Source: Okamejei kenojei (Eukaryota). From it: a stretch of DNA of 64,000 nucleotides. This document shows positions 2,282 through 63,275 of the stretch, one piece after another. Made by a program: the position numbers and the translations under genes. Below the pieces are notes generated by a model that had not been told where the DNA came from, did not search any database, and worked only from the letters and a program-made list of their open reading frames with translations. The stretch spans positions 48,794,001 to 48,858,000 of the forward strand of contig CM069140.1 of NCBI GenBank assembly GCA_035221665.1, in the 5' to 3' direction. Each line of letters opens with the position of its first letter. Positions within the stretch are counted from its first letter, which is position 1.

Positions 2282-3838
2282 TAGAAACATAGAAACATAG
2301 AGGATAGGTGCAGGAGTAGGCCCTTCGAGCCTGCACCGCCATTCAATATGATCATGGCTGATCTCCAACTCAGTATCCTGTACCTGCGTTCTTTCCATAC
2401 CCCCTGATCCCTATAGCCACAAGGGCCACATCTAACTCCATCTTAAATATAGCCAATGAACTGGCCTCAACTACCTTCTGTGGCAGAGAATTCCACAGAT
2501 TCATCACTCTTTGTGTGAAAAATGATTTTCTCATCTCGGTCCTAAAAGACTTCCTCCTTATCCTTAAACTGTGACCCCTTGTTCTGGACTTCCCCAACAT
2601 CGGGAACAATTTTCCTGCATCTAGCCTGTCCAACCCCTTAAGAATTTTGTAAGTCTCTATAAGATCCCCCCTCAATCTTCTAAATTCCAGCGAGTACAAG
2701 CCGAGTCTATCCAGTCTTTCTTCATATGGAAGTCCTGCCATCCCAGGAATCAGTCTGGTGAACCTTCTCTGTACTCCCTCGATGGCAAGAATGTCTTTCC
2801 TCAGATTAGGAGACCAAAACTGTATGCAATACTCCAGGTGTGGCCTCACCAAGACCCTGTACAACTGCAGTAGAACCTCCCTGCTCTTGTACTCAAATCC
2901 TTTTGCTATGAATGCCAACATACCATTCGCTTTCTTCACTGCCTGCTGCACCTGCATGACTGCTTTCAATGACTAGTGTACCATGACACCCAGGTCTCGT
3001 TGCATCTCCCCTTTTCCTAATCTGCCACCATTCAGATAATAGTCTACTTTCCTGTTTTTGCCACCAAAGTGGATAACCTCACATTTATCCACATTATACT
3101 CCATCTGCCATGCATTTGCCCACTCACCCAACCTGTCCAAATCACCTTGCAGCCTCCTAGCATCCTCCTCACAGCTAACACTGCCCCCCAGCTTCGTGTC
3201 ATCCGCAAACCTGGAGATGTAGCATTCAATTCCCTCATCCCGATCATTAATATATGTTGTAAATAGCTGGGGTCCCAGCACTGTGCCTTGCGGTACCCGA
3301 TGCACTGCCTGCCATTCTGAAAAATGACCCGTTTACTCCTACTCTTTGCCTCCTGTCTGCCAGCCAGTTCTCTATCCACATCAATACTGAACCCCCAATA
3401 TCGTGTGCCTTAAGTTTGTATACTAATCTCTTATGTGGGACCTTGTCGAAAGCCTTCTGAAAGACCAGATATAACACATCCACAGGTTCTCCCTTATCCA
3501 CTCTACTAGTTACATCCTGGAAAAATTCTATAAGATTCGTCAGACATGATTTACCTTTCATAAATCCATGCTGACTTTGTCCGATGATTTCACCACTTTC
3601 CAAATGTGCTGCTATCCCATCTTTAATAACTGACTCTAGCATTTTCCCCACTACCGATGTTAAACTGGTGTGTAATTCCCCGTTTTCTCTCTCCCACCAT
3701 TTTTAAAAAGTGGGGTTACATTAGCTACCCTCCAATCCTCAGAATCTACTCCAGAATCTAAAGAGTTTTGAAAAATGATCACTAATGTATCCACTATTTC
3801 CGGGGCTACTTCCTTAAGTACTTTGGGATACTTGCCTT
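2282..3838 (-). mobile_element. CR1/HER1-like LINE, 5'-truncated ORF2 (RT) and 3' tail
   Basis: [49 protein letters not shown] motifs over frameshifted ORFs; (ctatgttt)n tail. Confidence 0.92.
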
Positions 3839-3888: not shown

Positions 3889-4801
3889 TTAAGAAAGAAC
3901 TGCAGATGCTGGAAAAATGCTGGAGAAACTCGTCCGGTGAGGCAGCATCTATGGAGCGAAGGAATAGGTGACGTTTCGGGTCGAGACTATTCTTCAGACT
4001 GATGTTGGGGTGGGGGAGGGGTGGAAAGAAGAAAGGAAGAGGTGGAGGCCGTGGGCTGTGGGAGAGCTGGGAAGGGGAGGGGAAGGAGGGGGAAAGCAAG
4101 GACTACCTGATATTGGAGAATACAATGTTCATACCACTGGGGTGTAAACTACCCAAGCAAATTATGAGGTGCTGCTCCAATTTGCGGTGGGACTCACTCT
4201 GGCCATGGAGGAGGCCCAGGACAGAAAGGTCGGATACGGTACGGGAGGGGGAGTTGAAGTGCTAGCCACCGGGAGATCTGGTTGGTTAATGCGGATTGTG
4301 CGGAGGTATTGGGCGAAGCGATCGCCAATCCTGCGCTTGGTCTCACCAATGTAGAGCAGTTGACACCTAGAGCAGCGGATGCAATAAATGAGGTTGGAGG
4401 AGGTGCAGGTGAACCTGTGCTTCACCTGGAAAGACTGCTTGGGTCCTTGGTTGGAGTTGAGGGAGGAGGTAAAGAGACAAGTTTAGCATTTCCTGCGGTT
4501 GCAAGGGAAAGTATCAGGGGAGGAGGTGGTTTGGGTGGGAAGGGACAAATTGACCAAGGAGTTACAGAGGGAGTGGTCTCTGTGGAAAGCCGAAAGGGGA
4601 GGAGATGGGAAGATGTGGCCAGTGGTGGGATCCCGTTGGAGGTGGCGAAAATGTCGGAGGATTATCTGTTGTATGTGACGGCTGGTAGGGTGGAAGGTGA
4701 GGACGAGGGGGACTCTGGTCTTGTTACGTGTGGGGGGATGGGGAGTGGGAGCGGAGCTACAGGATATAGAAGAGACCCTGGTGAGAGCCTCATCTATAGT
4801 C
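3889..4801 (-). mobile_element. Penelope-like element fragment (end of RT, GIY-YIG endonuclease, pLTR with hammerhead core)
   Basis: NLIYCIRCSRCQLLYIGETKRRIGDRF; hammerhead-like core at 3967-4000 on the same strand. Confidence 0.85.
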
Positions 4802-4976
4802 GAATAGTGCCCATCTAGCTTTGCATCATGGAACATCCTGAAACCCCTTTTCCTGAGCCTGCATTTATAGTCCACCAAATCAAAAATGATGTGTTAATTG
4901 CCACTGTTTTCTGATCATTAACCAGTCCTTAATCCATGCCAATATATTGCCCCAATCCCGTGAGAGCTCATTTTAT

Positions 4977-5697
4977 TAAAGAAGGAACTGCAGATGCTGG
5001 AGAATCGAGGGTACACAAAAGGCTGGAGAAACTCAGCGGGTGCAGCAGCATCTAAGGAGCGAAGGAGATAGGTGACGTTTCGGGTCGAGACTCTTCTTCA
5101 GACTGGTCAGGGATCAGGGAAACGAGAGATATAGACGGTGATGTGGAGAGATAAAGAACAATGAATGAAAGATATACAAAAAAGTATCGATGATAAAGGG
5201 AACAAGCCATTGTAAGCTGTTTGTAGTGTGAAAATGAGAAGCTAGTGCGACTAGGGTGGGGGAGAGAGATAGAGAGAGAGGGAATGCCAGGGCCCGAGGG
5301 CTGAGGGAGAGGTGGGAAGGGGAGGAGACAGCAAGGGTTAACAGAATTGAGAAAATTCAATGTTCAAGCCCAGAGGATGCAGACTCCCCAAGTGGAATAT
5401 GAGGTGCTGTTCCTCCAACTTGCGGTGTTGCTCACTCTGGCCGTGGAGGAGGCCCAGGACCGAGAGGTCAGATACGGAATGGGAGGGGGAGCTGAAATGC
5501 TGAGCCACCGGGAGGTCGGGTTGGTTATTGCGGACCGAGCGGAGGTGCTCGGCGAAATGATCGCCAAGCCTCCGCTTGGTCTCACCGATATAGATCATCT
5601 GGCATCTGGAGCAGCGGATGCAGTAGATGAGGTTGGAGGAGGTGCAGGTGAACCTCTGTCGGACCTGGAAGGACTGCTTGGGTCCCTGAGAGGAGTG
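4977..5697 (-). mobile_element. Penelope-like element 3' fragment with 15-bp TSD
   Basis: IYIGETKRRLGDHFAEH...RKLEEQHLIFHLGSLHPLGLNIEF; gagagctcattttat repeated at 4962-4976 and 5698-5712. Confidence 0.88.
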
Positions 5698-6092
5698 GAG
5701 AGCTCATTTTATGTTCCTGGATTGGATTACGTTTTTTTGCTGTGTTTCAAAATCCAAAGTCACCACATTCATGTGTTTCTCCATATCTAATCTGCTAGTT
5801 ACAATCCCAAAACTGTTGTAGATCTGTGAAACAGGATTTCCTTTTGATAAATTATGATTTTGCTATTTTTTTCTCTTTGATCTAATACTTTCTTCCATTA
5901 CTCCTGTTAGTTGGGGCTGGATTACTATCCTGGTTAGGTTTTTGTGCATTAAGAGATGTTATATTTGTGATAAAAATATATATTTTTAAAATGAGATTTT
6001 CATTTGACTTGGCTTGTAAAACTATTTATATATTAAAAAAACTCATATGGCCTTCAGCATCTTAACAATTAAGATTTCACCATTCTTTTTAG

Positions 6093-6351: not shown

Positions 6352-6551
6352 TGAAGATCGTACTACGATGTCTTTAAGTCTTAAGTACTTTTATTAAACA
6401 CACAGCATACATAGCCCTGGCTGTACGTGGTCTGTCACGAGCACTAGAGAGAGAGCTAGGGGCGTGCGGGTTACAATTATACTGACTGCTGGGGGAGTGG
6501 TTAGCATGGACATCTTACTAGCAATTAAAGGTGTACACACAAGCATCTACA
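6352..6551 (-). repeat. 3' LTR (TG...CA, imperfect 7-bp terminal IR tgaagat/tgtagat)
   Basis: Direct repeat of 10821-11017; adjacent polypurine tract agaggaagga on the minus strand. Confidence 0.93.
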
Positions 6552-6643
6552 TCCTTCCTCTACCAAAACAAGCAGTGAGTGACAGGGCGACCACGTCTCA
6601 TACGCCAGGGTAAGTACAAACAGTAAATTAAAGGGGTACATAA

Positions 6644-9578: not shown

Positions 9579-9580
9579 GC

Positions 9581-10738
9581 CTAGCAGGGGGACACATTTA
9601 CTGTCCAGCAGGAAGAAAGAGAGGGCCGAGTGGCCGACCGCACCGTGCAGTGGAGAGTGACCTTCCCCACAGGAACAAGCACGCCACCCCCATGAACAGC
9701 ACTGTCTGTGGAAACATGCTCATTATTTCTTATCTTGTTAAACAGGCGTGTTGACATAACGTTGGCAGCTGCACCAGTGTCTACCTTAGCAGAGAAGGCC
9801 GTGCCATTCACCGTGATTTGGACGGTCGGGTCCGTTATCAGTCCAGCTGCACCTCGCAAGGAAAACACCTCCAGCTCGCTCTGCACAGATTCAGGGTCAG
9901 ACGGGGGAAGATCATCGTGCTGCAGATACGAACCAGACACTGAATCATCACGAGTCAGATAACGAGACGGCTTCTGCTGTGGCTGGGCACTGTTCCCACG
10001 GGAACGGCATGCGCCTGAAAAGTGCCCGAGCTTGTTGCAAAAGTTACAGGTTTTCCCCAACGCAGGGCACACATTATAACGGTGAGAGACAAAGTTACAA
10101 TTAGGACACCGTTGAGGCGGTCTGGAGCCCAGCAGCGGTGTTGCCCTCTGTCGCCGAGGAGCACTGTACTGGGGACCAGCGAGACGGGCTGTGTGGACCA
10201 CTGGGTCAGGTATAGCTGAGGAGACAGCCTCGGCTAAACGAGAGGCATGCAACGCCTCATGTAGTGTCAGATCAGGCTTACGCAACAGCTCGGAGCGCAG
10301 CTTTTCGTCCCGCAAACCAAAGACCAAAATGTCACGGGTCAAGGCATCGGGGGTCAGGTCACGTAGGTTACATCGGCGAGCCAACTGGCGCAACGCGGCC
10401 ATAAAATTGTCAATAGACTCCCCAGGGTTCTGTCGTCTGGAGAACAACTTAAAACGCTCCAGAATGTGGTTAGTGGGAAGGTCGCACATCGTCGTAAATT
10501 TAGCAATTAAGCAGTCGGGGTCAGCAGCACTCTCACCATGTCCATAGACGAACGACTCCGAACGCTCGAGCGCCTCCGAACCAGCCAAGTTAAGCAGCAG
10601 GGATGCCTTGACAGCGGGGGCCACAGCAGGGTGGGCAATGGTAACGTAATGCTCAAAGTCCCGTCGGAACACACTCCAGCGATGAGTGATGTCCGCATCA
10701 AAGACCAGGACGTCAGGCTTACGGCAGGCAGAAGCCAT
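9581..10738 (-). CDS. Gypsy Gag plus aspartic protease
   Basis: Tandem zinc knuckles CPNC..H....C and CNFCNKLGHFSGAC; protease KVDTGAAANVM. Confidence 0.88.
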   Translation of the reverse strand: MASACRKPDVLVFDADITHRWSVFRRDFEHYVTIAHPAVAPAVKASLLLNLAGSEALERSESFVYGHGESAADPDCLIAKFTTMCDLPTNHILERFKLFSRRQNPGESIDNFMAALRQLARRCNLRDLTPDALTRDILVFGLRDEKLRSELLRKPDLTLHEALHASRLAEAVSSAIPDPVVHTARLAGPQYSAPRRQRATPLLGSRPPQRCPNCNFVSHRYNVCPALGKTCNFCNKLGHFSGACRSRGNSAQPQQKPSRYLTRDDSVSGSYLQHDDLPPSDPESVQSELEVFSLRGAAGLITDPTVQITVNGTAFSAKVDTGAAANVMSTRLFNKIRNNEHVSTDSAVHGGGVLVPVGKVTLHCTVRSATRPSLSSCWTVNVSPC

Positions 10739-10805
10739 CGTGGAAGCAGGGGGGGGTACTGGGACTAATGAAATAAAACGCGAAACACCAGAGACACAGG
10801 AACTA

Positions 10806-10820
10806 CCACTTCTGACACCA
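10806..10820 (-). promoter_or_regulatory. Primer-binding site complementary to tRNA-Leu(CAA) 3' end
   Basis: TGGTGTCAGAAGTGG directly after the 5' LTR; complementary to ...CCACUUCUGACACCA. Confidence 0.8.
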
Positions 10821-11017
10821 TGAAGATCGTACTACGATGTCTTTAAGTCTTAAGTACTTTTATTAAACACACAGCATACATAGCCCTGGCTGTACGTGGT
10901 CTGTCACGAGCACTAGAGAGAGAGCTAGGGGCGTGCGGGTTACAATTATACTGACTGCTGGGGGAGTGGTTAGCATGGACATCTTACTAGCAATTAAAGG
11001 TGTACACAAAGCATCTA
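10821..11017 (-). repeat. 5' LTR (outer terminal dinucleotide missing)
   Basis: Matches 6352-6551 except for small deletions at the outer end. Confidence 0.93.
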
Positions 11018-11554: not shown

Positions 11555-12390
11555 CACAAGAGAGTGCAGAAGCAAAAACCAAAGTGCTGCAGAAATCGAT
11601 GGGTCAGTCAGTATCTCTGGAGGAAATGGACAGACAACTTATCGATTGGGCCCTTTCTTCAGACTGATGGAGATGGGGTAGGGGGGGAGGAAACTGGAAA
11701 AGAATGAGGATGGGCAAAACCTGGCAAGTGAAAGGTGGATACAGGAGGGGGGAGAATTGGTAAATGGGTGGAGATGGTGATGGTCTAGAGATGACGAGGG
11801 GATAAAAAGATGTCAGATAAGGCAAATAGTGGGGTTATAAAATGTAAAACCAGATAGAGGGATATGCGTGAATTTGAACGGGAAAGGCGAAAGGGGGGGG
11901 AGGGAAATGGGAGACTGTGATGGGAGGGAGATGAGCTTAAGGAGGAGGGGAAAAGAACAGCTCGCCAGTTGGTGGAAGAAATGTGTGTGCACTGAGATCG
12001 GGGAGGGGAGACGGGGTGGGGAAATGAAATGGGGTAGGAGAGTATTGCTTGAAATTGGGGAATTCAGTGTTCATTCTGCGTAGGAAGGAACAGATGCTGG
12101 CTTAAACTGAAGATAGGCACAAAAAGCTGGACTAACTCAGTGAGTCAGACAGCATCTCTGGAGAAAAGGAATAGGTGATGTTTCCGGTTGAGACCCTTCA
12201 TCAGACTGTTTATACTGTTGGGTTGCAGGCTACGCAAGCAAAATATGAGGTGTTATTTTCACTGTGTGCGGCCCCACTCTGGCTGTGGTTGAGGCTAAGG
12301 ACATTAAGGGTGGTATGGGAGTGGGAAAGGGGAGTTAAAATGGCTAGCAACCACGAGATACAAACAAACCCTGACGGATAATAGCATGTG
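11555..12390 (-). mobile_element. Old Penelope-derived fragment with a nested younger short copy (~12080-12206)
   Basis: Degenerate similarity to 3889-4300; nested copy has a canonical CTGATGA core on the minus strand (12174-12207). Confidence 0.6.
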
Positions 12391-15650: not shown

Positions 15651-15889
15651 TATGTGATATATAAAACTGGGATTACTATATACCATTATCTTGGCAATGT
15701 GCATTTTTTGATGCATTCCATTCTACTTCAATCCCAATTTGCACAGTGTGTTTGCCCTGTTCCAGATTAATAATCTCAAAGTCATTGGTCATTAGTGATT
15801 TTGTGGTGTGTCTTTTCTCTTTGACCTTGCTCTTTTATTTTACTTATGTCTACTCATGTTATGTTTATTTGGGTTTTTATGTTTTTCAG

Positions 15890-15986
15890 CTGGTTCATAT
15901 ATTTGCCAATGATTCAACTCATTTTGTCCCAGTAAAGGCACTCTTTCTCCTTGTAACATCTGTGACGCTCTCAATCTTCCAGCAAG
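15890..15986 (+). CDS. IPO13: Importin-13 exon (LVHIFANDSTHFVPVKALFLLVTSVTLSIFQQ)
   Basis: ttcag/gtagg, 97 bp, phase 1 end matches the next exon. Confidence 0.95.
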
Positions 15987-16201
15987 GTAGGTGACCATAG
16001 TTTTAAATTTGAATCCTTATGACAGGATGTGTATGCTGCCTGTTTGTCTTTCAACAATATTGATCATGCTGAAGTTTTTCCTGCACAGTTTTAGTGGTTT
16101 CTTTGCCATTCAATGTGGTGTAGGCAGACCTGTAAATCCTTCCTGAACCTTTAAAATACCAAATGCATAATTAGTTATGAAAAGTGACCATTTTACATAT
16201 A

Positions 16202-17365
16202 CAGTGCCCTCCATAATGTTTGGGACAAAGACCCAAACATTTAGTTATTTACCTCTGTATTCCACAGTTTGAGATTTATAATAGAAAAAAAATCACATTT
16301 GGTTAAAGTGCACATTGTCAGATAAAGGCATACATTTTGGTTAATGACAATGTCATGTAAATTAAAGTAGTCATGTTTAATATTTTATTGCATCTCCTTT
16401 GCATGCAATGACTGCTTGAAGTCTGTGATTCATGGTTATCACCAGTTCTCTGGTGGTGCTCTGCCAGGCCTGTATTGCAGCCAGCTTATGCTTGTTTTGG
16501 GGCCAGTCCCCTTCGGTTTTCTCTTCAGCATATAAATGGCATGCTCAATTGGGTTCAGATCGGGTGATTGACTTGGCCATTCAAGAATTGACCATTTTTT
16601 AGCTTTGAAAAACTCCTTTGTTGTTTTAACAGTATGTTTGGGATCATAGTCTTGCTGTTGAATGAACTGCCGACCAATTAGTTTTGAGGCATTTGTTTGA
16701 ACTTGAGCAGATAAGATGTGTCTATACACTTCAGAATTCATTGTGCTTCTACCATCAGCAGTTGTATCATCAATTTAGATAAGTGAGCCAGTATCTTCAG
16801 CAGCCATACATGCCCAGGCCATAACACCCCCACTACTGTGTTCACAGATGAGGTGATACGCTTTGGATCTGGGGCAGTTCCTTCTCTCCTCCATACTTTG
16901 CTCTTGCCATCACTCTGATATAAGTTAATCTTCATCTCATCTGTCCATAAGACCTTTTTCCAGAACCGTGGTTGCTCTTTTAAGTATTCTTGGCAAACTG
17001 TAACCTGGCCATCCTATTTTTGCGGCCTACCAGTGGTTTGCATGTTGCAGTGTAGCCTCTGTATTTCTATTCATGAAGTCTTCTGCGGACAGTGGTCATT
17101 GACAAATCCACATCTGACTCCTGAAGAGAGTTTCTGATCTGTCGGACAGGTGTCTGGGGATTTTTCTTTATTATTGTCATCAGCTGTGGAGGTCTTCCTT
17201 GGCCTGCCGGTCCCTTTGCGATTAGTAAACTCACCAACGCTCTCTTCTTATTCCAAATGCTGATTTTGGTAAGCCTAAGGTTTGGCTGATGTCTCTAACA
17301 GTTTTATTCTTGTTTCTAAGCCTCATAATGGCTACTTTGACATGACTTTGGTTCTCATGTTAATA
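16202..17365 (-). mobile_element. Tc1-family transposon, one end lost, decayed transposase
   Basis: ta-CAGTGCCCTCCATAATGTTTGGGAC TIR; QQDYDPKH and WPSQSPDLNPIEH motifs. Confidence 0.88.
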
Positions 17366-17747: not shown

Positions 17748-18912
17748 GGGGTACCCGGATGTGGCGTGGAAGGACGAGAAGCCAAAGCAAAGAAGTGGAA
17801 GCCAAATAACTGAACGGAAACGAAGCCGAAACGCCAACTAACCGAAAGGGCGGGACGCCTAAAAGCCAACCACCCGAAAGGGTGGGACGCCTAAAAGCAA
17901 ACTCACCGAAAGGCCGCTCTGTGGAAACGCCAACTCACCGAAAGGCTGCATCGCCTACAAGCCAAATCACCGAATGGCTGCTCTGCCGAAAATTCAAATA
18001 ACGGACATGACGTCGCCGGGGCGCTGGGACTTGTCAGTGATTGGTCCAGACGCCCGCGTCCATCACATCACTGGCCGGTGGAGACGGGAGGATGGGGGTC
18101 ATTTTCCCACACAAGCCATAGATGACTGGGCACTCTGAACCCGAGCACCAAGTTGTAAGCGGCCGAAGGAGGGCATCCCTCTGGACAGCCACCACTCTCC
18201 CACGGCCACGGCCGTCTCCCCCATGCGGCCGTCCGCCTCGTCTCCCCCGTGCGGCTTCACTGTGACGGGCTGTGTGTCGGCAGCGCCGGGTGGAGCAGAG
18301 GTGTGGGACAGGCTGGTCCCTCCGCCCACCCAGACTCATTGACCGCGATGCACCACCATTACGCCCCAACACCCATACCGAGTGATTCACCCCCCCCACA
18401 CCGGCCGCGGGGACAGATGGCTCGGGGCACTGGCAGCCATAGTGAATCACTTTTAAAACATGGGGTGAGGGGGGCACACACAAATTCCCTGGTGGGCCAA
18501 TGAAAAGTGTGCATGACAACGAACAATTTTACCTCCTTCCACTTCCCACCCACCCCCCCCCCCCCCCCCCCCCCCGATAACAAGAAACACATTTTATTTA
18601 TTGTTTAAACACAGTAATACCGTCTGGTTGTCTGCGTAACGCACACAAGCTCCCACGCTCAAAACAACAGATAATCTGTAATCTGATTTAACCGAAAATT
18701 GACACAAAAAGCTGGAGTAACGCGGCGGAACAGGCAGCATCTCTGGAGAGGAGGAATGGGTGGCGTTTTGGGTCGAAACCATTATTCAGACCTGAATGGT
18801 CACAGCCGATGAAATGAGGCAACTGTCATTTACGCGGAGTGACTCAGTGGGACAGTCAGCATCTCTGGATAGAAGGAATGGGTGGCGTTTCGGGTCGAGA
18901 ACCTTCAGACTC
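17748..18912. mobile_element. Unclassified GC-rich repeat with short tandem sub-repeats fused to a hammerhead module
   Basis: Second, inverted copy at ~45757-46390 with the same junction. Confidence 0.6.
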
Positions 18913-20519
18913 AGTCTTCGGTGGTGGGATCTGTACTTTACACCTGAATCTCTCTGCCCTACAATACTCACCAGGGCCATGTCATTTACAGCACAAGTCT
19001 TGCCCTGGTTTAACTTCCCAAACTGCACTTGTTTGAGTTAATTCCATTTGCCGGTCATAGGTGCCTGGCAGGATCCGCTGGTTGTAGCCCTGGATGACAC
19101 ACCACCAAATTTAGTGTCATCCACAAACTTACTGATCATGCCATCTGCATTCTTAACCAAACTGTTAATACATATGACAAACAATAGTGGATCCAACTGA
19201 TCCATGTGTCATAGGATACAAGCGGATAAATATTCTCTTTATACCCTTCCATATCTTTAGTGCCCCTCTCTCCTGACTCTGTCCGAGGAAGGGTCTCGAC
19301 CCAAAACGTCACCCATTCCTTCTCTCTAGAGATGCTGCCTATCCACTAATTAATTCCAGAATTTTGTGTGTATCTTTAGTATAAACAAGCATCTGTATTT
19401 CCTTTTTATTACATTATTCCATTCTTTATTGCCCTCCTTGCCTCTCTAAATTATTATCAAATAACAGTTTTTAAATGTTCATACAATTATTTAGCATTAC
19501 ACTGATCATATATTGTGTTCAGATTTTTGATAAGTAGTATCCCTTCTGCATTATGTTGGGCCTAGATGGTCTGGATTGAAAGCAGGGAAATCTGTGAATA
19601 TGGCTGGTAACTACCTCCATCTGGGAAGCCAAAGCATTAATTGAGATTTGAATCCTGCCTGTTAAACATAACTTTGCTATTTCCTTCTATGCTATTGAGG
19701 CAGTGTACCTGTGAGATATTTTACTACTGCTTGGGGGTTGGGAGATCAATGGAAGTTGTTGCATCCATGAAATGCTAATCAATCTAGTTTGATTGGTATA
19801 GGTATATATTGCAGATTGATGAAAATGGGCAAAATCGCTTTTGATACAATTGTAATAAACAATTGATGCTTTGCGAGTGTTGGTATAATTAGTAACCATA
19901 AAGACTGTAGCTGCTCCAAATTGGAAGGACAGGTAACATCTGCAAAGTGAGGAACAGAGTTAACATTTCGGGTTCATGCCTCTTGTCAGAATCATTTGCT
20001 CATTTGACAAGATGCAGTTAACCTAATAGATGAACTTCCTCTTTCCATAGATGCACCTGGCCTGAGTATTTCCAGAATTTTCTGACTTTCTTTCTTAGTG
20101 CAATTATTCAAATGGAGTTCATTGTGAAGAACAGATTTTTATATTTACCTGGGTGGCTACACTTTTAAATGGATGAATGATTCGTTTGAAATGGTGATAT
20201 TTAACTGGCATTCTGCATTATTCTTGCTCATGATGTTCAGGTAGTTCTAGGCTCTTATTTTGCTTTGGTTCAACAAACTGGTGGTAGAGGTAATAAAAAC
20301 AATAAATTGAAAAACTCAACTTGCTGTGCATGATTTACACCACATTCAAATTTTCAACTCGAGTTTACATTGAGTATATTGAAATGAGGTTGTGTATGAG
20401 GATAAGAAAAAAACAACTTGTGTGCTTTTACTACTGCCATAGTGGTACTTGATGCAGGGTATCAACGTTGTATCTGGCGCCAATATGGCAAATTTAAGAT
20501 TAGTGGCCTGGAGTTAGGG

Positions 20520-20660: not shown

Positions 20661-21171
20661 TGAGTTAATTGATACGTCTCCATAGAACTTGAAGCTTAAA
20701 TCCCAAAACAAAGTTTCCACAGTTATTTGCATAAAACTGAGTGAAAAAAAATGTTCATTTTAGCACATAGCCAAATGTCTATATTATTAGAGAGCCATAG
20801 AATTTTTCCAAAGTGGAAAATCCAATGTGTTACAACCTCTTTTGGTGTTATTAATAGGCAACTGATAGCATTAAATATTTGCCATGGGCTTTAGATTGTT
20901 ATTAATCTATTAAATTATGAATGCCAGTAGCTTTCGTGACTAGGTCTTGGTATTTAGGGGACACTTGCATCATTGTAGTTGCTATTTTATTTAGTCATTA
21001 AAAAACATTCTAACTTTTCTAAATCTGTATACATGCATCTGTGCCATCTGTGTCTGGTGTCCACACAAAATGCTGGAGTAACTCAGCAGGTGAGGCAGCA
21101 TCTATGGAGAGAAGAAATTGGCGACGTTTCGGGTCTGGTGTATCTTTGTCGGTTGCCGTCTGCCTCTGAAT

Positions 21172-22269: not shown

Positions 22270-23620
22270 AAGATCGAGAATTTGTCTCCAGCAAATGAGA
22301 GGTCTGTTCAAGCATCTGATAACATTGGGGAAGAAACTGTTCTTAAATCTGATGGTGTGTGCTTTCAAGCTTTTGTATCTTCTGCACTATGCAAGAGGGA
22401 ATAACCAGGGTCTGAGTGGTCATTGATTATCTGTAGGAAAGAACTGCAGATGTTAGTTTAAATCGAAGGTAGACACAAAATGCTGGAGTAACTCAGCGGG
22501 ACAGGCAGCATCTCTGGAGAGAAGGAATGGGTGACGTTTCGGGTCGAGTCTGAAGAAGGGTCTCGACCCGAAACGTCACCCATTCCTTTTCTCCAGAGAT
22601 GCTGCCTGTCCCGCTGAGTTACTCTAGCATTTTGTGGTCCTTGATAATGTTAGCTGCTTTCTTGTGGTGGCTTGAAGTGTGGATGCATTTGATGCGATGG
22701 GGAACGCTGATATGTGTGGTGGACTGGCCTGGATTCACAAATCTCTGTGATTTCTTGCAGCCTTGGGCAGAGTGGTTACCAGAGCGTTTCCTTGGTCTTT
22801 TAACAAAATACAACGATTAGTGGGTATGCTAATTCTCGGATATAGTGTCAATATGATTCGACCAGGCAAATTGTTGATGATATTTACACCTGGGAATATT
22901 AAATTTGCGACCATGTCCATTTCAGCACCATTGATGCAGACTGAGGAGTGTGCATTCCAACCCTCTTCCTGAAATCGATGACGAGCTCCTTTGTTTTGCT
23001 GACAGTGAGGGGGGGGGTTGGTGATTTGAGACCATGCTGCTAACCTCCCTATTTTCTTCCCGTACTGTCTCATCATTGAGATTTGGCCCACTATGATGGT
23101 GTCATCTGCAATCGTCTATATGGAGTTAGAGCAGAATATGACTACTGTTGTGATTGTACGGGGAGTATGCTAAGTGGTTGAGAATGCATCCTTACAGGGC
23201 ATTGGCATTGAGAATTATCATGGGTAATTCTCCATGTATTGTTATTTATCCATCCTGATTGAGGTCTAGGGGTCAGGAAGCCATGGATCCAGTTGCAAAA
23301 GAGAGGAAGTTGAATGTAGGTCCAGGAGTTTGGATGCAAGTTTGGTTAGGATTATGGTGCTGAAGGCTGATCCATAGTCAAATAATAGGAGGCTAGCATA
23401 GGTGTCCTTGCTATCCAGATGTTCCAGGAAGGAGAGTAGGGAGAGAGAGATGGTGTCCACTGCGTAACAGTTGCAGTGTAGGAGAATTGCAGTGTTATGA
23501 AGCTGGAGTTGAAGTGTCCTTGGCCTGCCTCTCAAAAGCACAGTGAATGTCAGAGCCGCCAGATTGTAGTCATTAAGGCAGATTTTGTTGGTTTACTTTG
23601 GCACTGGGGTGATAGTGGTC
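22270..23620 (-). mobile_element. Rex1/Babar-like LINE remnant
   Basis: LEHLDSKDTYASLLLFDYGSAFSTII; C-terminal RFKNSFFPNVIRCLN. Confidence 0.7.
22432..22633. mobile_element. Palindromic Penelope-derived short element with hammerhead core (22550-22577, +)
   Basis: Long inverted arms; degenerate 15-bp TSD gtggtc(a/c)ttgat(t/a)at. Confidence 0.8.
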
Positions 23621-27472: not shown

Positions 27473-28229
27473 GTAAGTATACTTTGTGTCAACATGTGTA
27501 CAGGAGCTATGTTGAAATTCATTTAATTAATCACCGTCTTTGCCAGTTATAGCAGCTTTATCTGATAATGACAGTAAATTCACTGAAATTGTTTCCTTTG
27601 CAGTATTATGTTTACCATTAAAACAGTTATGTGAGGTGTTACAATATTATGTAACTACCATCACATATGTAATGTCTTAACAAAAATATAAAAATCGGCT
27701 GTAACATTGTGTCAAATGCAAAATTTCCCTTTTTTATTTTCAACTACTTGTTGACTCATATTTTAATTAGCCAGAATGATAGTTCTTGATGTGCATTTAA
27801 TGATGATCTTGACTGCGGGGAGCAGTCACAGTCATAGCTGACTCAATATCCATTTGATAGACAACAAATACTGGATGCTGGTTTAATTCGAAGATAGACG
27901 CAAAATCTTGGATTTAAACCAACATCTGTAGTTCTTTCCTACTCAATATCCACGGTCTGCAAGTGGAAAGTATTCAGGAATTGGTGTTGACATTCCATGG
28001 GTTCTGTGGTTCATTCTTCACCCCCAAGCAGTTTCAGTGCTGCCCCAGATTAACAGATTGAATAATTTCTGCAGTATGTGCTGTTAGGTGCCTTGTTATC
28101 AGGGAAGGAGTGTTTCCCATTAATTCTATATTGGAGCCATTTATGTTTAGACTAGCTACTGTCTGCATATTATATTATTTTGTCTAGATATATCTTGCAG
28201 TATTATTTTGGACACTTGGGGCGGTCATT

Positions 28230-29947: not shown

Positions 29948-30664
29948 GTATGTTAACATCTAAAGTGGTAATAGGATGAAAACTGACATTAACAGGGGGC
30001 AAATTGTTTCCATGACATTTTATTTAAAGTTATTAGTTTCCAAAAAAAATTGGTATGGCATGGACAAATGAGAAATAGATGCATGAAGCAGTGTTAGACT
30101 GTGAATTTTGGTTTTGAGAAACACGAAACGTGCAAAATGTGATATTGTTCAAAAGAATGGCGCAATTACCTTAGTAGAAGACAATGTCCAGTTTCTCCTT
30201 TATGTATGATATTGGTGTCCTTTCTGCATAACCCAAGTCGTGCCCCACAGAAACTGATCTTTTGGCCCATTATGTCCATGCAGATAATTAATTCCTCATC
30301 TTCTCTAATCCTGGCACTGGGTCTGTAGCCAGGGCAATTCATGTATTCATCGAGACAGAATACCCACTTCAGCCTTCCACTAGGAAAGTGTATAACAGAT
30401 ACTCTGGCTGAAGAAATTGTATAAAGTTGTATTATAACATTCTTGCTCATATATTCTCTGCTTCTGCTAGTAAAATATAGTATTCTATACACCTTCATCT
30501 TATCTACTTTCTCTGTCACCTTCCGGAATCCTTGCACTTAAACACCAAGGTCCCTCTGTTCCTACAATTCATTTTGTTAATGATGATGCTGCCTGTCCCA
30601 CTGAGGTACTCCAGTATTTTGTGTCTACCTTTGTGGTAAAGCAGCATCTGCAGTTCCTTCCTGT

Positions 30665-32014: not shown

Positions 32015-34398
32015 CAGTAAATCCTCATTTTAACAGTCTCCTTCAGTTACAGCGGATGGACCTGCTGACGCCACCCCCAGCTTACAAGGTGCACCAGCAA
32101 GCCCCTTTTTTACCCACCGCATGGTCCGATTGACACGACTATAGTTGCGACTCATGTTGTAGCCCGAGGACACAGACAGCATGCGCAGGTTCCCTTCCCT
32201 CTCACCAGCTGCAACTTCGTCCTGTTGGAGATAGCTTTGTCTGCTCCTCACTCCACCACTGCTACCACCTCCTTCTCCCGTCGCTCTTCCCACTTGGCCT
32301 CTCTTCCCTCTTCAACGGCGGCGCCGCCTCCTTAACCCACAAAGTCGCAGACGAACTCCTTGGAAGATGTCGGTGACTGAGCGCATCTTGCTGATGGCAG
32401 TGGCCTGATTAAAGCGCTGCCACCCAGGGGCCACGTCAACAACAGCCACGGCAACTGGACTGTGCGGCGCGTGAAGAAGGGCTCACTGGTGCATACTAGC
32501 AGCATTGGCACCTGGCTTTAAGGTGAAACGACACAATGTGCTGGTGTAACTCAACAGGCTGAATGAGTCTGAAGAAAAGTCAGAACATCACCTATCCATG
32601 ATCTCCAGAGATGCTGCCTGACCCGCTGAGTTACTCTAGCACTTTGCGTCCTTTTGAGCATTAACCATCATTTGCTTCTGTTTGTTTCTTCTACATACAA
32701 TGATAGAAGCAGGCACGTGCCGTGAGTAATTACTCAGGGTAGGCAGTCAGCAGGCTTTAAAAAAAAATCTTAAACCGCGCATGCGCAGATTGTTCTCTTC
32801 GTAAAAAATAAAAAATAAGTAACAATTCAATTTCCCCAAGGCTTCTCAATCTCCTTCATTTATTAATTACTGAATGGGTGTGGGATGGAGGATGAAGGCA
32901 GGTGGAGAGATGGCGGGAAAAACGGGAGCACACCGGGACGTTGAACCAGTTGTCATATTATTGAATGGCAAGGGTCCATTTGGAGGGAGAGTTCCTTTCA
33001 CAGCATGTGGAGAGTCTCTGCCAGGGGTTAAAGATGCGAGAAGGCAGAAGTGTTGAAAAGGAGAGGGTCGAAGATCATATCAGACTCACTCACCGCTGCC
33101 GCAGCGCTCCGGACACGGACAGCAGAACTGGCCACCACTTCCGGGGATAGAAGGAGCTTGGGTCGACACCAGAACCGGCTGCCCTTCAGCGCCTTCCGAT
33201 CACCTCTGGCAGTTCTCTTCGTCTGAACATCTCTCACCTGCTGCTCGCCGGCTTCGCTCATGTCAACCGCGTCCCGCAAATTCTTAAATTCCCACAGCCA
33301 AGTAACCTCAACTGGTCCCGTAAACGCGCTGTCGGAATTTAAAGATTTGCGGGAAGCCGGCCGGCAAGCGGCAGGTGAGAGATGTTCAGACGGAGAGCAC
33401 AGCCAGAGGTGAGCGGGGACCAGCAGAAGGGGCTGAAGTGGCAGGGTCCCGGCGGCCGCTCAAAGTCAGTCACCCGAGCTGCTTCCTTCCTCGGAAGTGG
33501 CGGTCAGTTGTGCTGTCCGTGCCCGGAGTGCTGCGGCAGCCACCCAAGCTAATTCACTCCACGGCCGCAATAAAACCATATAGCAATTGCAGCACGGAAA
33601 CAGGCCTTCTCGGCCCTTTGAGTCCGTGCCGAACACTTACTCTCACCTAGTCCCATCTACCTGCACTCAGACCGGAGTGTGACAAGTGGGTTACTGACCC
33701 CGAACCTCTCCTTCACAAAGCCAGATTCCCCAAACACTGTGAACGGAGCTCTCCCCCCACCCTGGGAAATACAGCATTTAAAAACATAAAGCACCAAGAA
33801 ATGCACTTACCACGTTATTGGTAGATTAAGTCCATTCTTCACTCTTTGTTTCCTGAGAAACTATTAAAATAATGACATATTCAAAAATCCCGCCAAGAAA
33901 CTCGCGCTGGGCATGTGCAGTATACTGCTGCGCCTGCGCAGTACTGCAAAGGCAGAATTTCTGCTGCCTTCAGCTCCCCTTAAAACTGATGGCTCAGGCA
34001 GCGCTGACGGCACGTGGGCTGCACAGAGATTCAAGGGTTACAAGCGCTGCGGATGAAAGGCACGGAGAATGATGCCAACCTAGGAGATCGATCTCTTACA
34101 TAGGCATAATTCTCCCATGCCTTTACTATTTATATTTAATAATTACCATTTCATAATTTTAGTCAGGGTAGGTACTGCCTACCTTGCCTACCCTGACGGC
34201 ATGTGCCTGGATAGAAGGGTCTTGACCCAAAATGTCACCCATTCCTTCTCTCCAGAGATGCTGCCTGTCCCACTGAGTTAATCCAGTTTATAGTGTCTAC
34301 ATACAATGATAATACCTTACTCGGTTATAGGGGACAATTGGCAATAACGGACATCATTCTCCCCCCTCCCAATAGTCCATTATAATGAGGGTTTACTG
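32015..34398. mobile_element. TcMar/pogo-type non-autonomous element hosting nested insertions
   Basis: TIRs cagtaaatcctcattttaa / ttataatgagggtttactg flanked by TA. Confidence 0.7.
32710..34209. mobile_element. Non-autonomous hAT transposon, 1.5 kb
   Basis: 14-bp TIR caggcacgtgccgt/acggcatgtgcctg; perfect 8-bp TSD gatagaag. Confidence 0.85.
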
Positions 34399-45606: not shown

Positions 45607-47669
45607 CAGTGCCCTCCATAATGTTTGGGACAAAGACCCATCATTTATTTATTTGCCTCTGTACTCCACAATTTGAGATTTGTAATAGAAAAAAAAACGT
45701 GATTAAAGTGCACACTCAGATTTTATTAAAGGGTATATTTATACATTTTGGTTTTATTTCGGGTCGAGACCCTTCAGACTCTCTCTTCAGGTCTGAAGAA
45801 TGGTCTTGACCCGAAACGCCACCCATTCCTTCTCTCCAGAGATGCTGCCTGTTCCACTGAGTTACTGCAGCTTTTTGTTAAAATAGATTATCTGGTGTTT
45901 TGTGCGTGGGAGCTTGTTGTGTGCATTACTATGGCCGCCAATGCCCTGAGCCCTATGTCCCTGTGTCCGGGGGAGGGTGAATCACCCGGTGTGGGTGTCG
46001 GGGGGGTGTATCGCCCCGTGTGTGGGTTGGGGGGGGGGGGGTGCATCACCCTGGTGTGGGGGTCTGGTGGCAGTGCATCGTGGTCAGTGACTCTGGGTGG
46101 GCGGAGGGACCAGACTGTCCCCAACTCTGTTCCACCCGGCCCTGAGTGTGTGTGTGTGCTGCCAACCCACAGCTCGTCACAGTGCGGCTGCACGGGGAGA
46201 CGAGGCGGAGGGTGGCCGTGGGAGGGTGTCCCGAAGGATGCGCTCCTTTGGCCACTTATTTGGTTTTTCGGCAGTGTGGCCTTTTGGTGAGTTGGCGTTT
46301 CGGCATTGCGGCCTTTCAGTGAGTTGGCTTTTAGGCGTCCGCCCTTTCGGTGAGTTGGCTTTAAGGCGTCCCGCCCTTTTTTGGCTTTTATAGACGTTTT
46401 TCTGACTGTGGAGGTCTTCTTGGCTTCGTCACGCCTTTGCGGTTAGTAAGGCTTCACCAGTCTTCGCTTCCTTCTCGTCCTTCGATGCACATGGAAATTA
46501 AACAGTGTGATTTATACATAGTATTTCAGCCTAATGTTTGGGACACATGGCTTCACAGGCATTTGTAATTGCTCAGGTGTGTTTAATTGCCCTCTTAATG
46601 CAGGTACAAGAGAGCTCTCAGCACCTAGTCTTTCCCGCAGTCTTTCCATTACCTTTGGAAACTTTTACTGCTGTTTATCAACATGAGGACCAAAGTTCTG
46701 CCAATGGAAAGTGCGGGAAAGACTAGGTGCCATTATGAGAGCTGTACCTGATTAACAATTAAACACACCTGAATTACAAACAACTGTTAGAGACATCAGC
46801 CAAACCTTAGGCTTACCAAAATCAACTGTTTGGAACATCATGAAGAAGAAAGGGAGCACTGGTGAGCTTACTAATCGCAAAGGGACTGACGAGCCAAGGA
46901 AGACCTCCACAGCTGATGACAGAAAAATTCTCTCTATATTAAAGAAAAAAACCCAAACACCTGTCCGACAGATCAGAAACTTTCTTCAGGAGACGGGTGT
47001 GGATTTGTCAATGACCATTGTCCGCAGAAAACGTCATGAACAGAAATACAGAGGCTACACTGCAAGATGCAAACCACTGGTTAGCTGCAAAATAGGATGG
47101 CTGGGTTACAGCTTGCCAAGAGCACTTAAAAGAGCAACCACGGTTCTGGAAAAAGGTCTTGTGGATACATGAGATGAAGATTAACTTATATCAGAGTGAT
47201 GGCAAGTGCAAAGTATGGAGGAGAGAAGTGCGGAACCAATGTTTCTATGTCACCCAATTGAGCATGCCTTATATGTGCTGAAGAGAGCTGAAGGGCACTA
47301 GCCCCCAAAACAAGCATAAGCTAAAGATGGCTTCAATACAGGCCTGACAGAACATCACCACCAGATAAAACACCCAGCAATCACAGACTTCAAGCAGTCA
47401 CTGCATGTAAAGGGTATGCAACAAAATACTAAAAACGACTACTTTCATTTACATGACATTGCTGTGTCCCAAACATTATGGTGCCCTGAAATGGGGGACT
47501 ATGTACAAACATTGCTGTAATTTCTACATGGTAAAACCAAATGTATAAAAATGGCCTTTATTAAAATCTGACAATATGCACTTTAACCACATGTGATTTT
47601 TTTCTATTACAAATCTCAAATTGTGCAGTACAGAGGCAAATAAATAAATGATGGGTCTTTGTCCCAAAC
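45607..47669 (+). mobile_element. Tc1-family transposon (same family as 16202), long TIRs, with internal insertion
   Basis: Left TIR after TA; right TIR ~47460-47669 cut by a Penelope-derived repeat; transposase remnant ~46683-47430. Confidence 0.85.
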
Positions 47670-47894
47670 GTCAACCCAAAACGTCACCCATTCCTTCTCT
47701 CCAGAGATGCTACTTATCCTGCTGAGTTACTCCACTATTTTGTGCCTATCGTCCTTCCATTCCCTGCCTGTTCATGCATCTGATTGGATGCCTCTTAAAG
47801 TTGGCTGTCATATTTACCATAAGGCTTTGTTCTCTAGCATTTAACATTTCTATCATGGGAAAGACTGTATCTACCCTATGTATTACCACCAGGG

Positions 47895-48595: not shown

Positions 48596-49739
48596 TCTAT
48601 GCCCCTCAAAATGTGATATTTTTCTGACAGGTCCCTGGCATCTCAGAGAACTTGTGGGTGGCACAGCGGTAGAGTTGCTGCCTTAAGGGCCTGTCCAACT
48701 TGGGCGTCATTTGCGCGTCACACAGATGGCGCGCAAGGATTTTGTACATCCCAAAATCCTGGGGCACCGCGCGTCACTGCCTACGTCACCACGCACCATG
48801 CGCGTGTAATGGACAACTTGGAGAACTCAAAACGTCACTTATCCATGCTCCCCAGAGATGCTGCCTGGCACGTTGAGTTACTCCAGCACTTTGTAGTTAC
48901 TTGCTTCCAGCTTTGTCCAATATTTCCTAATAACTAATGCACTCCAATCAACGCAACATTTCAGCAAATCGCTTCTGTACCCTCTCCAAGACCTTCACAT
49001 TCCTTCTTATCATATGGCAACCAGAATTGCATGCTATTCTCCAAATGTGACCTAAGTAAATATTTTTACAGCTGCAACATGACTTCCCAACCTTTATATG
49101 CAATGACTTAACCGATGAAGACAACCATTTGTATGTCTACTTTACCCCCCCTAAACCATCAGTTGCCACTTTTAGGGAGCTATTGGATTGCATCCCAGGT
49201 TGTCTCTGCACATCAATGCTCCTATGGATTTTGCCATTTACTGCACCTTTGAGACCAAATGTCACCAAGAAGAGGAGTACAACCCCAAGGCTCAGAAAAG
49301 AGGAGTCTCCCTCAGGGTGAACCTGATCGGTCCTTCTAGATCAGGTAATATCTGGGTCTGAATCCATGAGATAATCACTAAACTATTTTAAGTTTTGGAA
49401 GTATTTAAACTAATTACTAAAGAACTTTAAAGTATAGTTGAGTTGAGTCCTTCATTTGATGTGATAGTTGACAGAGGAGAAATGTCAATGGAATCAAGCT
49501 TGAGGAGCTGCATACATAGTACAGAGTTGCATATAGGCCAGAGGTAGTAAGGAGAGCAGATTTTTTTCCCTGAAGGTTATTAGTGAACCAAAGGAGTTTG
49601 AACAAAAATCTAGCAGTTTTGTATTTGCCATTGCAGAGCTTTTAAACAAATTCTCATTGTTAATAATTTAAATTCCACAGTTGCCGTTGATTTGAAGTGT
49701 GATGTATGGAATGTCAATCCAGGTGTCTGGATTATTAGT

Positions 49740-49940
49740 GTAGGAAGGAGCTGCAGATGCTGGTTTACACCGAGGATAGACACAATATGCTGGAGTAACT
49801 CAACGGGTCAGGCAGCAACTCTCGAGAAATGGAATAGGTGAAATTTCGGATCTAAAGAAGGGTTTTGACCTGAAACGTCACCTATTCCTATTCTCCAGAG
49901 ATGATGCCTGACCCGTTGAGTTACTCCAGCATTTTGTGTC
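49740..49940. mobile_element. Palindromic Penelope-derived short element
   Basis: Inverted arms; 14-bp TSD tctggattattagt (49726-49739 / 49941-49954). Confidence 0.82.
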
Positions 49941-51413
49941 TCTGGATTATTAGTCCAGTACCTTGACTGCTGAGTGTCTCTATATTTCTGTGCAGTCAGT
50001 AATTTTATATTTCCTGTCAAATTATGAAATCATCTCTCATACGTATAATAATTTGTCAAAATAATATAATTGCCGCTCACCATAAACTGACTCGGCTAAG
50101 ATCCTTCCAGTCATTTTACAGACTGTTCCTTTTTAATTAACATATGTTAGACATTTGCTATATTTAATCCGAACATTTGAAATGCAAACATATTGAAAAT
50201 GGGTCCTTTGATATTTCAGTTGTTTATCTTCTGGTTCCCAGCATGCAGCTGGTCCTCCCCTACTCCAACCACCCCACTCTACCCTCATATCCACCATTTT
50301 GTGCACCTGGACTTGCCATCTCGTTATTTATATAGTACAATTGTTAACCTGTTAATACTCAGCCAGTCTGGGGGTGGGAGGGGGGCAGTTTTCTGCATTT
50401 TCTAAAATTTGTGCACAGTGAAGTGCCAGAGGATTTGGAGCTGTTGCTATTGAGCAATTAGCCATATTTTTAGGAGATTGTACATGAAAACTGATCCACA
50501 AACGGAGTGGTGAATTAATGAGGCTAGAAATTATGGCTTTAAATGGGCATTGTGCCAGCTTTACACATATTCTCTGGAAGCAACCATTTGTCTTGGAGAA
50601 GTCACAGGCATTGTACACAATAGAACTCTCACGTCCTCAGTTTTTCGCTTTTTTGAAATAATTTTGCTTGTCTTACAGCCTTTCTATCTGATGTAATGAG
50701 AGGCAACATAAAATGTCTTAGTAATGTCTAAAATTAATTTCCAATATTAGGAATGTATTGTATTACATTTAACCTGGAGGAAAAATACTGAGCATTGGAT
50801 GTTAAGGCCTGTAATTAAACACTAAACACATTCAATTCGATCTTTCGTGATTTATGCAAAATACTGATTCTCCATATTCACATGATTTATTTTAATTGAT
50901 GAAATGCTACCAGTGTTAAGGATATAAATGTGTTTAGGACTCTATGTACAAACATTCTATTTCCATTTTTGGTAATGTGGTTAATGGCTTTTGTCCAACT
51001 TTGTTTAATATGGTTTAACTGAGTAATTAGCTTTCTAATTTTTGTAAACCTTTTATCTACTTAGTGTGGATCAATGAATTCTTTATATCAATTTTATCAG
51101 TTGAATTAAACTGTGAAATTAGCGATGATTCCTTTATTATTGAGCAGTTAATTATGTCAGCTATTAAATTGTGATGTATTGTATTGTCAAACATCACCAA
51201 AGTTGTATTTCAAAACCTTGCACATTCTAGTTAATCAATAGGCCAAAGTACTAAGGTGCAGGTTTAAATTTGTGTTTGCTATCTGTCCTATCCTCTGCCA
51301 GTCAGCGCCATATTGATTTTTGAAGCTTAAAAGTTAAGAGTTTTCTTCCTGATTTGTGTTCTTTCATAGAATTATATGTCCTATGTAGCAAAGTGCTTGG
51401 AAACTTTGTGGAG

Positions 51414-61800: not shown

Positions 61801-62106
61801 CACAGTTTAAGAATAAGGGGTCGGCCATTATGGACTGAGATGAGGAAAAATCTTTTCACCCAAAGAGTTGTGAATCTGTGGAATTCTCTACCACAGAAGA
61901 CAACGGAGGCCAATTCACTGGATGTTTTCAAGAGTTAGATTTAGCTCTTAGGGCTAAAGGAATCAAGGGATATGGGGGGAAAAGCGGGAATGGGGTACTG
62001 ATTTTAGATGATCAGCCATGATCATAATGAATCACAGTGCTGGCTCGAACTCGAAGGGCCGAATGGCCTCCTCCAGCACCTATTTGCCTATGTTTCTCTG
62101 TTTCTA
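58880..62106 (+). mobile_element. Near full-length CR1 LINE (ORF1 with SGNH esterase; ORF2 EN-RT, internally deleted)
   Basis: AIVVGDS, DGLHLN; ARSIRNKVDEL..ITETWL; KSPGSDGLHPRV; FADD; CR1 3' tail. Confidence 0.9.
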
Positions 62107-63014
62107 AATTATGCTACAGAATTTTAGCAAATGAGGAAGTGTGGCAACTCATTGAAAAACTGAACCATATATTGAAATTGATGTTTACTATTGGATGGTA
62201 AATGATTTAATAATTTTAAGCTGAGCCAGTATATCAATGATTTGCACTTTTGTAACTTCAGTATCACTGGGTTCAAGGATCAGAGCTTGAGCTGGAAAAG
62301 GAATGGGGAGGGAAGTAGGGACAAGCTAAATTTGTTGTTCAAAAAATATCTGCTCAGAAAGAATTTGGTGTTGGGAAGTGACTGAGTAAACCAAATGTAA
62401 ATATTGCCAGTCCATTGGTTAATAATCAACTATGTGTTATGTATGATGCTTCATTTGGAGTTTGTGGCTCTTAGGAACTATTATTTTCTAAAGGCAGTAA
62501 AACTCACTGAGTGTATGTTAAAACAGAAAACAATATCGTACAGTTTCTTCAAGATCATCTTAAGAAATCACTTGAGGACTTGCTTCCACTCTGATTTTCT
62601 GTGTTTTCAGGTGAATGATCAGGCCAGACTCTTCCACATATGGGATAGGGGTTGCATGACAGAATGGGCAACGGGTAGTTTGTGAGATGATGTGCTTTTT
62701 CAACCGTATAGACAGGGCTCTTGTATGTTCCCTGTTCATGGATATGGTGCAATGAGGCCAATAATTAATTTCATCATCAATTGTCTTCCGTTTGTTGAGA
62801 AGTTGCTCTTAAAATATGACAAGTAGACCACTTACCAGGGACACACCATGAAACATTATTGTTGGAGGCAGTGTTGTAGACTTGAGACAGATTGGTAGAG
62901 GACTATTGTCTTGTGGATGTTGAGTTTAAGACTTATATGCTTTAGGAAAGAAGTCAATAGTCTTCCCACTTTATTTTCCCTCATGGAGTCTTCCTTGGGC
63001 ACTTCTGTAATTGA

Positions 63015-63275
63015 AGATAGACACAAAAAAACTGGAGTAACTCAGCGGGTCCGGCAGCATCTCTGAAAGGAAGGAATGGGTGAAGTTTCGGGTCGAGACC
63101 CTTCTTCAGACAAGCTATTCTTGCCCATTCTGTCATGCAACCCTGTCTGAAGAAGGATCTCGATCTGAAATGTCACCCATTCTTTCTCTCCAGAGATGCT
63201 GCCTGTCCCACTGAGTTACTCCAGCTTTTTGTGTCTATCTTCGGTTTAAACCAGCATCTGCATTTCTTTCCTACA
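63015..63275. mobile_element. Palindromic Penelope-derived short element with two opposed hammerhead-like cores
   Basis: Arms 63015-63111 and 63145-63275; 15-bp TSD cacttctgtaattga (63000-63014 / 63276-63290). Confidence 0.88.

Follow-up and report, generated by a model that had tools for sequence, protein, structure and literature searches.

The fold-back element at 22416-22645 of the window (the whole 64,000-nucleotide stretch of DNA that was analysed) is a single insertion of two Penelope-like element (PLE) terminal-repeat arms, which are arranged head to head and flanked by a 12-bp target duplication. This hairpin probably represents two short terminal-repeat copies that entered in one insertion, likely as two cDNAs from both target strands, with the minimal hammerhead motif carried along as a passenger.

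Positions in the terminal repeat are numbered here from the core nucleotide C3 (0), with the predicted cut between +27 and +28. The left (22416..22427, +) and right (22634..22645, +) copies of the target duplication are identical at 11 of 12 positions, and the first 3 nt of the right copy are shared with the element end. The tail-bearing arm (22432..22548, -) runs from +12 to the tail end (about +128), contains the tail at 22432-22473 as judged by family comparison, and is devoid of CUGANGA. The tail-less arm (22549..22636, +) runs from -1 to +86, or from -3 if the AG microhomology at the junction (22547-22548) is counted. The hairpin is non-nested, as -1..+11 occurs only in the tail-less arm and the tail only in the other arm. 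An earlier, sequence-only reading of this DNA had described a fold-back element with a hammerhead core, and both were found: 22474-22548 and 22562-22636 form 75 pairs (2 of them G-T wobbles) around a 13-nt loop (22549..22561), and the letters CTGAAGA-A-GGGT(CTCG)ACCC-GAAAC-GTC are present at 22550-22577 (+), with the predicted cut after 22577. For part of this core (22562-22577), pairing with the opposite arm is predicted. An Rfam scan of the focal region gave no hammerhead match at E<=5; a match to mir-8521 (35 bits vs. a cut-off of 80) was discarded as merely the hairpin.

An importin-13 exon at about 15880-15990 (+; PDB 2x19_B, E 2e-9) and additional importin-13-repeat matches at about 27400 and 31550 (+) flank the insertion on the plus strand, and the focal copy is therefore intronic. 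Between these exons, its sense arm has the orientation of the importin-13 coding strand, as had been proposed. For the companion proposal that plus-strand copies also lie in AP1M pre-mRNA, what could be confirmed was the presence of mu-adaptin exons downstream, 15-19 kb past the window end. These adaptor mu-subunit exons (contig C10, 48872730-48877207, +) are compatible with an AP1M gene.

By BLAST, 20 arms of the 90-130-nt unit were detected in the window; the earlier figure of about ten copies was too low, and all of the related sites named at that time belong to the PLE terminal-repeat family. The pattern CTGANGA..GAAAC occurs six times in the window vs. 1.03 +/- 1.04 times in shuffled sequences, none of 100 shuffles reaching six. 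Six arms pass the core regular expression (3914-3998, 4976-5101, 12080-12205, 22549-22636, 63009-63110, and 63146-63275), and the core letters are broken or absent in the copies at 19282, 34213, 45792, and 49851. Two copies that each follow a same-strand GIY-YIG-like ORF, also noticed earlier, were confirmed at distances of 111 and about 235 nt. One belongs to a young 5'-truncated PLE (4976..5703, -) with a GIY-YIG end (5338-5703), a 235-nt UTR, a hammerhead (5074-5101), and a tail, which is related to the intact tandem units of locus L067; the other belongs to an older 5'-truncated PLE (3914..4482, -) with a GIY-YIG-like ORF, a short UTR, a hammerhead, and no tail. Family comparison further identified a solo stub with a tail and a CTGATGA core (12080..12205, -), two decayed tandem stubs (18687..18906, -), a stub with a broken core (19282..19404, +), a stub starting within stem II (21063..21135, -), a fragment without core (30585..30662, +), and a stub with a truncated core (34213..34300, +). 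Further fragments without core lie at 27907-27942, 32584-32650, 47671-47748, and 48830-48894 (all +), and a stub preceded by a short inverted piece, in which U16.1 is changed, lies at 45757..45878 (+). A second hairpin (49739..49941) consists of a tail arm (-) and a tail-less arm (+) with a 14-bp target duplication, and a third (63009..63275) consists of a tail-less arm (-), a 35-nt spacer, and a tail arm (+) with a 15-bp target duplication. In one copy (63146-63173, +), both partners of the stem II pair 10.3/11.3 are changed, with A-T in place of G-C, perhaps by chance.

Several other mobile sequences are present in the window. They include an LTR retrotransposon at 6352-11017 (-), which has broken frames, matches to protease, RT, RNase H, and integrase zinc domains, and terminal repeats of about 198 nt (6352-6549 and 10821-11017), as well as Tc1/mariner-like transposon remnants at 16200-17300 and 46258-47461 (with an HTH_Tnp_Tc3_2 match at 46756-47172) and two stretches, 2280-3829 and 60551-62108, which we take to be CR1-like LINE remnants.

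A genome search with the GIY-YIG-like ORF at 5338-5703 yielded 136,730 first-look candidates, of which 150 were scored, and 20 parent-element loci were picked for long open frames. They contain ORFs of up to 769 aa, and those of 755-769 aa match RT (RVT_1, E 2e-6) and GIY-YIG (E 2e-3), both below the Pfam cut-off, and carry the DKG, YxDD, and YIG motifs. In the fetched loci, the RT + GIY-YIG ORF is followed by a 235-nt UTR, the hammerhead, and the tail. At L067, two units about 4 kb apart are each closed by a terminal repeat and are followed by an inverted pair, and a pseudo-LTR (pLTR) tandem or partial-tandem layout was seen at L067, L066, L076, and L069. A C-X4-C-X2-C motif was found between RT and endonuclease (EN), at residue 636 of the L061 ORF; a CX2-5CxxC zinc-finger-like RT-EN linker has been described as a feature of the Neptune/Nematis clades (Craig et al. 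2021, PMC8557442). The copies thus show the traits of EN+ PLEs (an RT + GIY-YIG ORF, pLTRs, a one-sided tail in inverted insertions, and short target duplications), and the terminal repeat can be assigned, on sequence grounds, to an autonomous EN+ PLE of about 4 kb with a Neptune/Nematis-type cysteine linker. Membership in the Penelope/Poseidon clade was considered and dropped, since that clade has no Cys linker and the parent ORF has one.

For 115 of 137 endonuclease C-terminal matches, a hammerhead-like match was found no more than 520 nt downstream (by a loose pattern, with a few spurious hits), behind UTRs of about 95 to 300 nt, the focal tail type included. Young and older tail types both occur downstream of GIY-YIG ORFs, and a sequence logo of the subfamilies indicated that conservation among them begins at CAGT, immediately before the core. 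At L067:4175-4190, the probable start codon, which follows the tail, overlaps AAG/GTATG, a sequence resembling a 5' splice donor. A PDB search revealed no solved structure related to the PLE protein, a pattern scan of metagenomes for relatives from other species gave 119 loci of which 0 were related by blastn, and a viral-contig search found no relative.

The suggestion that the motif is a minimal type I hammerhead of PLE pLTRs fits published traits, as CUGANGA, GAAA, UH, the bulge after A9, G10.1-C11.1, and the palindromic ACGU at 15.2-16.2 are all present. Doubts about its activity, raised earlier from the short helix I, were well placed: the main subfamilies have a helix I of 2 bp, a U-A or U-G pair followed by G-C, which is shorter than the typical 4-5 bp. 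A helix I of 2 bp has also been reported for a D. virilis variant (PMC4209133). All core letters are kept in 66 of 155 random copies spanning the core and in 69 of 369 arms of the random set described below. Identity was 0.945 in the non-CpG core columns vs. 0.951 in the 25 most constant tail columns, and 0.871 in all non-CpG tail columns, subfamily variants included; CpG-type decay was observed at G12 (0.79) and in the ACGU palindrome. The core therefore decays like constant tail columns, implying neutral decay after insertion and a core fixed among source elements. The checks that the sequence-only reading had put forward go mostly against function in the dispersed copies, as the core is no better conserved than other invariant columns and helix I has 2 bp. 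Stem II is identical in the three subfamily majorities and hence uninformative on covariation, and the only change between subfamilies is one-sided (A/G at position 1.1). Stem variants above 15% were absent from the contigs of four other runs, and copies of very old subfamilies are too decayed for covariation. In folding models, forcing a hammerhead-like fold is predicted to cost 5.2-9.1 kcal/mol in single arms and 37.8 kcal/mol in the focal transcript, where the 75-bp stem is expected to prevent the ribozyme from folding.

The abundance of the terminal repeat was estimated from a random set of 100 random 10-kb pieces (1 Mb) of the 2.76-Gb genome. The 369 arms found there, which occupy 3.2% of bases, bear out the heavy amplification proposed before and imply about one million arms genome-wide (bootstrap 0.87-1.18 million). 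Head-to-head pairs account for 123 of the 369 arms, and 30 have an endonuclease match no more than 500 nt upstream. Of the 141 non-inverted arms that extend to the start of the core, 99 lack a recognisable upstream UTR; 14 of these 99 are pyrimidine-rich and perhaps contain missed UTRs. Same-strand neighbours no more than 300 nt apart (43 in 1 Mb) are irregular, and no long tandem arrays of the terminal repeat were found in the random set. The youngest subfamily includes 32,884 exact copies of one 41-mer, from which a young sample was drawn (the first 100 listed matches, in the first 7 Mb of contig C1, with 3 duplicates removed); 62 of the 97 copies are ORF-less, and diagnostic variants at 4 sites are equally frequent in short and long copies (Fisher p 0.36-0.68). 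At L067:4007-4212, contigs of runs guessed to be RNA jump from +123..+193 back to -4, which points to head-to-tail units some 130-200 nt long in some relatives; these could be retrozyme-like tandems.

In both samples, starts concentrate around the first base of the hammerhead rather than at the cut site. In the young sample, 55 of 97 5' ends lie at -7..+6, 7 at +10..+18, and 35 are spread from -12 to -1522, giving 3.9 starts per base at -7..+6, compared with 0.09 over the 100 nt upstream. Because the young pattern excludes starts beyond +26, the random set provides the fair test, and among its 31 5' ends, 16 lie at -5..+6, 6 at +15..+20, 6 far upstream, 1 near the cut site (about +30), and 2 later. 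About six independent arms begin at +29..+33, near the cut site, a weak hint of cleaved templates that does not amount to evidence. Cut-site starts were rejected as evidence for cleavage since they derive partly from one hairpin at +31 carried inside another mobile element. The 3' ends form two clusters, at +87..+100 (around +92) and +118..+139 (around +125..+129). Target duplications, mostly of 11-16 bp, were at least 7 bp long in 39 of 67 single young copies vs. 1.4% of shuffled pairings, and at least 8 bp long in 22 of 50 hairpins vs. 2.7% of shuffled pairings; several directly adjoin the stub, thus leaving no room for an upstream exon. No significant excess of an untemplated cap G was observed before all starts (34 of 100 vs. 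29% expected, p 0.15). An excess of G ahead of -2 starts (8 of 12, p 0.011, post hoc) and three G-ending fillers that adjoin long target duplications are a hint of a cap-derived G. Contigs from 8 runs guessed to be RNA had no peaks of starts or ends and showed a depth step near -4, which is confounded by differing UTRs; contigs cannot show ends, strand, or level.

The inverted pairs mostly follow one rule. Among 21 young pairs, 19 join a tail-bearing and a tail-less arm, 1 joins two tails, and 1 is unclassed (p 2e-5 vs. 0.5 on 20). In the random set, 44 of 63 pairs are mixed, 6 are like-with-like, and 13 have a short arm, and 59 of the 63 junction signatures are distinct. When a shared-junction pair and the tail-tail pair were left out, 19 young pairs remained, of which 12 are non-nested (each arm having sequence absent from the other), 4 equal, and 3 nested. 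One cDNA folding back would not give such non-nested arms, and two templated syntheses could produce them. L170 and L172, about 56 kb apart on C1, have an identical unusual junction filler and different target duplications; thus, some hairpins may be recopied. Another mobile element, present at L174:1319-1719, L228, and L236, harbours a complex PLE hairpin that has a target duplication of its own. This element contains tandem GC-rich repeats, occurs at least three times with different flanks, and is likely a non-autonomous DNA transposon with the hairpin as passenger.

These patterns can be arranged into a probable integration route. In the PLE of the anole, the tail is set by two internal start sites, cutting and extension take place on both strands of the target, uncut RNA serves as the principal template, a dimer is predicted, and hammerhead cleavage is protein-dependent (PMC11167929). 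By analogy, +92 and +126 are probably two internal reverse-transcription start sites, and all three subfamily majorities are predicted to form a stem across +92. The fixed 5' edge at the initiator-like CAGT is probably the 5' end of the element RNA, and a transcript beginning there would offer both start sites twice: priming in the first repeat would run off the RNA end and leave a 95- or 130-nt stub, and priming in the last repeat would produce ordinary 5'-truncated copies. The template would be uncut RNA, and priming from both cut target strands would yield two cDNAs that could be joined head to head by microhomology. The transfer of this mechanism is limited because the biochemistry comes from a Poseidon-clade element and the parent PLE belongs to another clade, and its young-copy basis is the first 7 Mb of one contig. 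More broadly, the million copies may form a fossil record in which RNA starts at the hammerhead, a dimer primes both strands at two sites, and most retrotransposition events leave strong-stop stubs of 95-130 nt or hairpins, a tentative picture to which we give somewhat less than an even chance. If it is true, the hammerhead marks the RNA 5' end and is copied uncut, and the minor +29..+33 class is a trace of in vivo cleavage.

Several alternatives bear on parts of this account. The fixed 5' edge could be a processing or stop point, arising at a 3' splice site, from a block by protein or structure, or from a non-ribozyme cut, and CAGT with its upstream pyrimidine tract can indeed be read as a 3' splice site. 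Copies with a UTR from different subfamilies show an 80% pyrimidine tract and CAG ahead of the core, an intron of D. virilis ends at helix I (PMC4209133), and the cap G is not clear. However, target duplications adjoin the stub with no common upstream exon, no GT..AG joint ending at the edge was present among the 15 listed of 70 joints, and a block by structure should lie 3' of that structure rather than at a 5' edge, which makes this reading rather unlikely. It is extremely improbable that the dispersed copies are self-cleaving ribozymes retained in host pre-mRNA, e.g., in importin-13 introns, even with the intact core letters of 69 arms and the focal sense arm on the coding strand in its favour. 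The neutral, CpG-type decay of the core, the predicted cost of the fold in the hairpin as well as in single arms, the 2-bp helix I, a helix III that needs a partner, and the few copies starting at the cut site all count against functional dispersed ribozymes, and minimal hammerheads published as single motifs were inactive (PMC4209133) or dependent on the PLE protein (PMC11167929).

The stubs might also form a self-propagating non-autonomous family (SINE- or retrozyme-like) with its own internal promoter, mobilised in trans and with recopied hairpins. The ORF-less young copies, the junction common to L170 and L172 with differing target duplications, the head-to-tail joints back to -4, and the derivation of retrozymes from pLTRs (bioRxiv 10.64898/2026.07.22.740005) would be in agreement with it. 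The independent ORF-less family that had been proposed earlier is nevertheless unlikely: short and long copies share variants at equal frequencies, nearly all junction signatures are distinct, GIY-YIG ORFs stand ahead of both tail types, the 1-Mb sample is without long tandem arrays, and the anole PLE template requires ORF sequence past the tail (PMC11167929), which the stubs lack. Finally, hairpins could arise by self-priming (snap-back) of one strand on an antisense template, the explanation preferred for the inverted repeats of Adineta Penelope, with self-priming on antisense RNA (PMC3846280). Junctions with microhomology or palindromic bases, the focal AG among them, point in this direction, and the 7 of 19 pairs that are equal or nested are compatible with snap-back because neither arm pattern excludes it. 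On the other hand, the remaining 12 pairs and the focal copy are non-nested, and the two arms of a pair end at different start sites in 19 of 21 cases. Snap-back is thus considered very unlikely, and two cDNAs from both target strands remain the preferred origin of the hairpins.

Tens of thousands of near-identical young insertions provide junction statistics on PLE integration, knowledge of which has so far rested on one in vitro system. The tail/tail-less rule and the fixed 5' edge make both the origin of inverted repeats and the question of whether the hammerhead cuts the template testable. In addition, stubs make up about 3% of the genome, with one in three lying in a perfect hairpin and some being intronic, which matters for repeat annotation and is relevant to false microRNA or ribozyme calls.

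Minimal pLTR hammerheads, truncated copies in inverted arrangement, and a tail on one side have already been published. A literature search, with Repbase and subscription papers outside its scope, found no account of this PLE in cartilaginous fish or of the fixed 5' edge. The minimal hammerheads of metazoan PLE pLTRs (Cervera & De la Pena 2014, PMC4209133) share with the present motif the A9/10.1 bulge, G10.1-C11.1, palindromic 15.2-16.2, the absence of helix III, the pLTR position, and an occurrence mainly as dispersed single motifs with some opposite-strand pairs. In contrast, helix II is 4-5 bp here and 7-8 bp there, helix I is 2 bp here and 4-5 bp there, and about a million arms stand against thousands of motifs. 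Cartilaginous fish are not named in the parts of that paper and the two supplements covered, and its supplementary file 1 may list one.

Poseidon PAc of Anolis carolinensis (Frangieh et al. 2024, PMC11167929) likewise has two start sites bounding a 30-40-nt tail, a hammerhead just upstream, tandem masters, and a conserved stem around the first start site, which is predicted here too; an uncut RNA template would be a further common feature. It differs in that the core here is without AUG, the ORF begins after the tail, and the Cys linker indicates another clade, and the available part of its account contains neither a fixed 5' edge nor tail/tail-less hairpin stubs. The EN+ PLEs with inverted pLTRs (Arkhipova et al. 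2013, PMC3846280; PMC8557442) resemble the present copies in the head-to-head inverted 5'-truncated copy, the one-sided tail, short target duplications, and an initiator-like pLTR motif, whereas here there are often only two repeats without an ORF, duplications are mostly 11-16 bp, and non-nested arms favour two cDNAs over self-priming. The non-LTR retrozymes (bioRxiv 10.64898/2026.07.22.740005) are also ORF-less, pLTR-derived, and equipped with a type I hammerhead, but they are defined as head-to-tail arrays of units with a full hammerhead each, whereas the focal copy is inverted, same-strand neighbours are irregular, and the stubs of this genome are solo or inverted insertions with target duplications.
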